Part shown: piece after piece, positions 42,080 through 42,397 of the stretch
Numbering within the stretch: the stretch's first letter is position 1
Layout: every line of letters starts with the position of its first letter
DNA from: Raillietiella orientalis
Taxonomy: Eukaryota
Length of the DNA: 64,000 nt
Reading direction: 5' to 3'
Assembly (NCBI GenBank): GCA_036172245.1
Contig: JAYWIR010000013.1
Span: forward strand, 2,790,001-2,854,000
The notes under the pieces: model-generated
Database searches by the model: none
Told to the model about the DNA's origin: nothing
The model's input: the letters and a program-made list of their open reading frames with translations, nothing else
Translations under genes and position numbers: made by a program

Positions 42080-42220
42080 GTGCCTCTTGCGAATGTGTTT
42101 GGTTACATCAACGTTCTGCGCTCTGTATCTCCAGGGAGGGCTCAGTGTAGTATGCATTTTTCTTGTTGCGAACGCGTGCCACAGTATGTGGTTGATGAGT
42201 TCAAGTTGAAATGGAATTAG
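42080..42220 (+). pseudogene. fusA: bacterial elongation factor G, C-terminal 46-codon fragment (Wolbachia/Anaplasmataceae-like)
   Basis: [46 protein letters not shown] matches EF-G domain V (VPLxxMFGYxxxLRSxSQGRAxYSMxFxxYxxVP). Confidence 0.85.
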
Positions 42221-42231
42221 GGGCAACGATT

Positions 42232-42397
42232 ATGACATCAGTAGGAGCCACAGCAACAGTGGTCGAAGCGTTTGGGAAAGCCGCACGTGAACGTGGGAGC
42301 GATAGGGCGTGGGAAGACGGCATTGGCAGCGGCGACAGCAAAGCATTATGGAAATCCTGCAGCATACGATCAAATGGATAAGGCAGCAGCAGAGGAG
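42232..42397 (+). pseudogene. tuf: bacterial elongation factor Tu, N-terminal fragment (Wolbachia-like), frameshifted with P-loop deletion
   Basis: ATG 11 nt after the fusA stop. Reads MT..[16 protein letters not shown][HVD deleted][30 protein letters not shown], against the consensus [34 protein letters not shown]. Confidence 0.88.

Follow-up and report, generated by a model that had tools for sequence, protein, structure and literature searches.

Fragments of Wolbachia DNA that have entered animal nuclear genomes (nuclear Wolbachia transfers, or 'nuwts') are already well known. Such Wolbachia 'genomic fossils' are reported for Dictyocaulus viviparus (PMC4046930) and for filarial nematodes (PMC12693587), and a grasshopper genome is reported to hold transfers from two Wolbachia supergroups (PMC4675112). 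Nuclear fragments of this kind are the sole durable trace of past infections and can date the history shared by host and symbiont. The classic nuwt hosts are AT-rich.

The locus described here, detected in a window of 64,000 nucleotides (the whole stretch of DNA that was analysed), would be, in kind, an ordinary dead nuwt. It is highly probable that it represents the non-functional remnant, approximately 0.6 kb long, of an old Wolbachia transfer to the nucleus of a GC-rich protostome. Like the inserts of Dictyocaulus viviparus and of filarial nematodes, it consists of fragmentary and pseudogenised Wolbachia DNA in apparently animal nuclear DNA, and its value is that of a record of past infection, the wider importance of which depends on the identity of the host. 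It differs from the classic cases in that the DNA around the insert is very GC-rich (59-69%), with ~0.6 kb of Wolbachia DNA seen in the window; given this GC-rich host DNA, the relic has shifted strongly from AT to GC and provides an unusually clear case of AT-rich foreign DNA drifting towards the composition of a GC-rich host (32 changes in that direction vs 1 in the other). As in the grasshopper, an arthropod whose nuclear Wolbachia fragments were traced to donor lineages by phylogeny, the donor was sought here in a tree, although the present assignment was made on 323 aligned columns and with moderate support.

DNA searches of positions 36000-48000 against five whole Wolbachia genomes, all of which match the block, placed every match at 42078-42651, and the GC content of the 100-bp bins between 42100 and 42699 is 37-54% vs 59-69% in the adjoining bins. 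The original prediction had described a fusA-tuf operon junction at 42080-42397, consisting of a 46-codon EF-G end, an 11-nt spacer and the start of EF-Tu, flanked by LINE relics. Translation and profile matches bore out the coordinates, the EF-G end and the spacer, but neither the end of the feature at 42397 nor the LINE flanks: because of the additional matches at 42400-42540 and 42567-42650, the Wolbachia-derived block extends from 42078 to at least 42651. The block is a mosaic: its three parts, a fusA-tuf junction, the end of a repeat and the 3' portion of a gene of the erpA type, are not linked to one another in Wolbachia genomes. The features of the block, with the evidence for each in brackets, are as follows.

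42078..42700, + strand: whole Wolbachia-derived block, coinciding with the GC trough (GC bins; DNA matches to five Wolbachia genomes)
42080..42220, + strand: 3' end of fusA (EF-G), last 46 codons and TAG (translation; Pfam EFG_C; NCBIfam EF-G; alignments)
42221..42231, + strand: fusA-tuf spacer of 11 nt, GGGCAACGATT (comparison with Wolbachia junctions)
42232..42397, + strand: broken 5' fragment of tuf (EF-Tu), ~50 codons (junction alignments; NCBIfam EF-Tu)
42238..42255, + strand: 18 extra nt after ATG ACA relative to most Wolbachia tuf genes (junction alignment)
42399..42540, + strand: terminal ~140 bp of a non-coding Wolbachia repeat of ~460 bp (DNA matches; alignment; genome survey)
42567..42651, + strand: 3' end of an iron-sulfur insertion gene of the erpA/iscA type, with TAA at 42649-42651 (DNA, protein and profile matches)

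The junction piece resembles the str operon of live Wolbachia in its gene order, in its EF-G C-terminus and EF-Tu N-terminus, and in its 11-nt spacer, GGGCAACGATT, which is one base off GGGTAACGATT, the spacer of many Wolbachia. Positions 42080-42217 encode 46 residues (VPLAN...KLKWN), directly followed by a TAG at 42218-42220, all within a single open frame that spans 42068-42220. This fusA piece has no internal stop and carries eight replacements with respect to the Wolbachia consensus, at positions nearly invariant among Wolbachia; it matched Pfam EFG_C (E 1.6e-6; 28.5 bits, cut-off 27.9 bits; profile positions 48-87 of 89) and the NCBIfam EF-G model TIGR00484 (E 7.4e-8). The tuf fragment starts with an ATG at 42232 and reads MTSVGATATVVEAFGK, after which the reading resumes one base out of frame; four NCBIfam EF-Tu models matched it with E values of about 1e-4. 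The frameshift and the loss from the P-loop, both already noticed in the original prediction, are visible in the alignment with five Wolbachia junctions as an extra G in TTTGGGAAAGCC (42274-42276, +1 frameshift) and as a 9-bp deletion of CATGTGGAT between 42307 and 42308, which removes His-Val-Asp from the P-loop GHVDHGKT, and there is an Arg in place of a His. The same alignment sets the limits of homology of the junction piece at ~42078 on the left and ~42397 on the right, and no homology was found 5' of the EF-G piece, either in the junction alignment or in the DNA search of the five Wolbachia genomes.

Unlike the live operon, the relic thus retains 46 and ~50 codons of the two genes, with the frame shifted, the HVD residues deleted, and tuf breaking off at approximately codon 50, where a repeat has been attached. 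A functional EF-G requires ~690 amino acids with all five domains, and the last 46 codons alone are present; a functional EF-Tu requires an intact G1/P-loop (GHVDHGKT) in a frame of ~390 amino acids, and the fragment has ~50 codons, a shifted frame, no HVD and the His-to-Arg replacement. The relic is not a working gene but a dead and presumably old remnant.

At the nucleotide level, the junction piece is Wolbachia DNA, far beyond chance. Blastn of window positions 42000-42500 against the loci found with the KHYGNxxAYDQ pattern (see below) aligned 324-334 bp with four Wolbachia fusA-tuf junctions, at 74-74.5% identity and with E values of 3.6e-61 to 3.4e-55; loci with the second tuf copy gave shorter matches restricted to tuf. 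Every one of the 60 genomes in the GTDB genus to which the Wolbachia of Psylliodes chrysocephala (G001) belongs matched the junction query, and the EF-G C-terminus was found in 97 of the 98 genomes of the family Anaplasmataceae. In the junction sample, composed of 59 Wolbachia-genus genomes and other Anaplasmataceae, the window shares 68-81% identity with the 59 Wolbachia junctions vs 58-63% with 14 non-Wolbachia Anaplasmataceae. Protein signatures run the same way: the EF-G end contains FGYINVLRS, common to the window and Wolbachia, vs FGYVKDLRS in other Anaplasmataceae, and the short EF-Tu loop K[HY]YGNFVAYDQ is alike in the window and Wolbachia, vs a longer TTVLA.KLSG..K.VKYDE in the rest of the family. 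When KHYGNxxAYDQ was searched as degenerate DNA in one genome per species (185,579 species), 14 stretches matched, 13 of them in Wolbachia and one in a 'Rickettsiales bacterium' MAG. Homology closer to Wolbachia than to other bacteria, a feature by which nuwts are recognised, was therefore found. The Wolbachia donor, which had been proposed from the EF-Tu N-terminus and the KHYGNxxAYDQ loop, agrees with these identities and with 13 of the 14 pattern matches; both signatures proved correct, and the DNA matches to Wolbachia have E values down to about 1e-61.

Several other searches and candidate origins were considered for the same piece. The search for related loci with the 50-aa EF-G piece gave 600 pattern stretches, none of which was confirmed, and no relative was scored among eight candidates of a word-index protein search. 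The exhaustive HMMER search of representatives (171 matches, E up to 0.001) was of no help in identifying the donor among the best 150 of the 171 matches, which are mostly short unnamed fragments with 33-75% identity and a best E value of 3.1e-10. An origin from host genes for mitochondrial-type elongation factors was ruled out, since it does not fit adjacent fusA and tuf genes with a bacterial spacer and a DNA-level match to Wolbachia. A donor of the Ehrlichia/Anaplasma type was rejected because those bacteria carry FGYVKDLRS and the long EF-Tu loop. The best match in PDB, 6not_A (38.9 bits), is merely the closest solved EF-G and not the closest sequence.

The substitutions in the relic are strongly directional. 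At 231 sites with at least 90% agreement of 53 Wolbachia, the window differs at 35, of which 32 are AT-to-GC changes and one is GC-to-AT, and the GC content of the aligned junction is 50.7% in the window vs a Wolbachia mean of 37.1%. The differences at codon positions 1, 2 and 3 number 12, 12 and 32 in the window vs 32, 29 and 228 summed over seven live Wolbachia, the nearest sequence being the reference in both cases (chi-square p 0.0025). Judged from these substitutions, codon constraint is relaxed, a pattern typical of neutral evolution under a GC-ward bias of the host and difficult to square with contamination from a live symbiont. Third positions are still the commonest in the window (32 of 56 differences), which indicates that part of the divergence accumulated in the bacteria rather than after entry into the nucleus. 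The excess at first and second positions suggests ~0.1 substitution per site after the loss of constraint, as an uncalibrated estimate. Decay and a compositional shift unlike those of a live symbiont genome, as expected of a nuwt, are hence seen in the frameshift, the 9-bp deletion, the 32:1 bias and the codon-position test. The proposal of an old transfer and not a live contaminant is upheld by the same bias and relaxed codons, by the broken P-loop and frame, and by the mosaic of three loci.

Immediately 3' of the tuf fragment, positions 42399-42540 match about 40 copies of a repeat in G001, the Psylliodes chrysocephala Wolbachia genome, with 72-85% identity. The match ends exactly where two aligned genomic copies cease to be alike, that is, at the natural end of the repeat. 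The ~460-bp element occurs in 45 of the 60 Wolbachia-genus genomes, and all nine records that matched a 34-nt pattern taken from it are Wolbachia. No open reading frame of at least 40 amino acids was found in it, and two copies gave no match in Rfam. Concerning the element itself, its copies (L023:1492-1949 and some 40 further sites in G001) contain internal direct repeats, and a first look gave up to about 220 candidates per Wolbachia-genus genome; it may be MITE-like or of another type. The erpA-type piece further downstream is 80% identical over 84 bp to a single place in G001, and its translation shares 20 of 26 residues with a Wolbachia open reading frame (E 1e-11) that matches NCBIfam ErpA and TIGR00049 (iron-sulfur cluster accessory protein). 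Since the repeat-erpA junction falls at the natural end of the repeat, the donor probably carried this junction already, whereas the tuf-repeat junction falls inside the repeat and is probably a scar of deletion or joining. The DNA search of the rest of the window (52 kb) against the five Wolbachia genomes gave two chance-level matches alone (E about 0.009), and so a larger insertion is not documented within the window.

As assembled, the flanks of the block are GC-rich, non-bacterial and repeat-carrying, with a mir-87 hairpin 18 kb away. The GC content of the window is 47-70%. The mir-87 hairpin (24426-24500, - strand) scored 59.4 bits in Rfam, with a gathering score of 49, and nothing else in the window exceeded the Rfam thresholds; no tRNAs were found. 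The mir-87 family is protostome-specific. The 3' (mature) arm in the window has what we take to be the canonical protostome form, and is consequently not diagnostic of the host beyond protostome. Interspersed repeats occur in the window with 65-99% identity between copies (49696-50518 vs 62786-63608; 1196-2045 vs 35345-36192; 32457-33283 vs 58351-59251; and a family at 10234-10881), and no Pfam domain was found in the tested ORFs of these families. No other copies of the flanks (40500-44500) were found within the window. The embedding in transposon DNA and the flanking LINE relics proposed earlier are not supported: reverse-transcriptase or endonuclease Pfam families were found in none of 181 ORFs, that is, neither in the 141 ORFs of at least 110 amino acids in the window nor in 40 shorter ORFs at 39.4-45.6 kb, and the right flank at 42399-42651 consists of Wolbachia DNA. 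In the 141 long ORFs, EFG_C was the one protein family to score above its cut-off, which, together with mir-87 and the interspersed repeats, points to a eukaryotic setting.

Separately, the repeat families of the window comprise recent copies that are 95-99% identical and older ones at 65-76%. One family contains, 4 kb from the relic, an open frame of 362 amino acids (37066-38151, - strand) with a 66% match to 13529-14087; the nearest Atlas cluster of this ORF has zf-RVT in 29% of its members, a recognition below threshold, and the ORF may be the tail of a LINE ORF2.

Maximum likelihood analysis of 66 sequences and 323 columns (three duplicates and five rows with <250 bases having been dropped) placed the window on a branch of 0.36, as sister to L038 (SH-aLRT 69, UFBoot 86), a member of the clade that contains L010 (Wolbachia of Psylliodes chrysocephala). 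The window again grouped with members of this clade when the fusA columns (UFBoot 94), the tuf columns (86) or RY coding, in which transitions are removed (75), were used. A 23-nt state that the window shares was matched in only three records, from the Psylliodes chrysocephala strain, from 'uncultured Wolbachia WOLB0025' and from the Wolbachia of Ctenocephalides orientis. A donor close to the clade of the symbiont of Psylliodes chrysocephala is the most likely, a placement with modest support. A passage search of the main text of the DToL Wolbachia paper (PMC9894559) found no mention of Psylliodes.

This placement conflicts with a character of the tuf fragment. The 18 extra nucleotides at 42238-42255 align at 15 of 18 positions (manual count) with a 21-nt N-terminal extension, MTTAVEATAQ/K, present at 11 of the 59 Wolbachia junctions, and two internal indel features are shared; since they align with a known extension, they were probably inherited from the donor and are not a lesion. 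All 11 junctions with the extension have a short EF-G end (ELKYN/ELRYN), in contrast to the window, which has the long end KLKWN, like 33 others; the combination of long EF-G end and tuf extension occurs at none of the 59, so that the relic keeps a donor character combination absent from the sampled genomes. A grouping of the window with the extension-bearing genomes was rejected by the AU test (p 0.0004), under a constraint that in addition imposed monophyly on those genomes, for which the ML tree gives no support. Because both indels, in the EF-G end and in the tuf extension, sit in short tandem repeats, and because extension-bearing and extension-free genomes are mixed across the ML tree, repeated loss of the extension is plausible, perhaps by conversion from the second tuf copy. 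The donor lineage would then still have held both ancestral states. More speculatively, and with low probability, an unsampled or even extinct Wolbachia lineage could be fossilised in the relic, in a lineage of GC-rich protostomes without known Wolbachia, and the relic would preserve an ancestral state of the str operon with a long EF-G C-terminus and a 6-7 residue EF-Tu extension; in that case it would serve to date an ancient infection, and the extension would have existed before the clades now without it diverged.

As for the history of the block, we infer a germline nuclear integration of some age in which the three pieces arrived in a single event. By analogy with what is established for nuwts, Wolbachia DNA released in germline cells would have been captured at a chromosome break. 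The repeat would already have sat in or beside a truncated erpA gene in the donor, and tuf would have become attached to an internal point of the repeat by deletion or joining. Subsequently, the block would have decayed neutrally, free of coding constraint and under a host AT-to-GC mutation or fixation bias, and the gain of the frameshift and the loss of the EF-Tu P-loop codons would have followed integration. Given such a germline integration, the relic presumably does nothing now.

The relic might instead descend from a sister lineage outside the sampled Wolbachia radiation, that is, from an unsampled and possibly extinct Wolbachia-like member of the Anaplasmataceae. The AU test retained a position outside all sampled Wolbachia, which leaves these monophyletic without the window (p-AU 0.076), and the joint presence of a KLK.N fusA end and a TAVEATA-type tuf extension at 0 of 59 Wolbachia junctions also speaks for such a donor. 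We nevertheless regard it as unlikely, since the best ML placement is within Wolbachia, in the L010 clade, to which fusA, tuf and RY coding each return; since the adjoining repeat is Wolbachia-wide (45 of 60 genomes); and since the two indels, lying in short tandem repeats, are visibly homoplastic on the tree.

An artefact, in which contamination or chimeric assembly fused host DNA with reads from a live symbiont or from the nuwt of a different organism, is very unlikely, even though the block is short, Wolbachia repeats are known assembly break points, and tuf forms the end of several Wolbachia contigs in the junction sample. Live symbiont genes would be intact and AT-rich, whereas the block has a frameshift, a P-loop deletion, a 32:1 ratio of AT-to-GC changes and a GC content of 50.7% vs 37.1%, a pattern to be expected of a long stay in GC-rich DNA like that of the flanks. 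Still harder to credit is a co-option of the relic by the host, for example as part of a transcript or as a regulatory element, in favour of which there are the 46 fusA codons without an internal stop and nothing else. Neither a start codon nor a frame of domain length is present, the eight replacements fall at near-invariant Wolbachia positions, EF-Tu is frameshifted and truncated, and the substitutions are spread across codon positions. The reading of the locus as a dead remnant of an old Wolbachia transfer, whose donor probably stood close to the Psylliodes chrysocephala symbiont and its clade, is therefore preferred.

Finally, the survey of live loci yielded some observations on the str operon of Wolbachia and its relatives. 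In a motif check for a downstream tuf (start within 80 nt, then [KR]PH.N), in which some loci were cut by contig ends, a tuf gene directly 3' of fusA was not found in two Wolbachia-genus genomes (L157 in G034 and L170 in G035), nor at the non-Wolbachia Anaplasmataceae loci L066, L173, L174, L177 and L185-L190. A fusA-linked Wolbachia tuf at L162 (G043:C1:513331-513861) has replacements at invariant positions, reading NVWTIGHVDHRKTT and then GGITSATAHV, and is possibly also decaying. In the Wolbachia of Litomosoides sigmodontis (L019, G003:C1:260745-264073), the fusA-linked tuf looks degenerate and reads EAFGRTPVNVGMIGRVGHGKIML; the second tuf copy of this strain matches normally, and the fusA-linked gene may be a pseudogenised duplicate.
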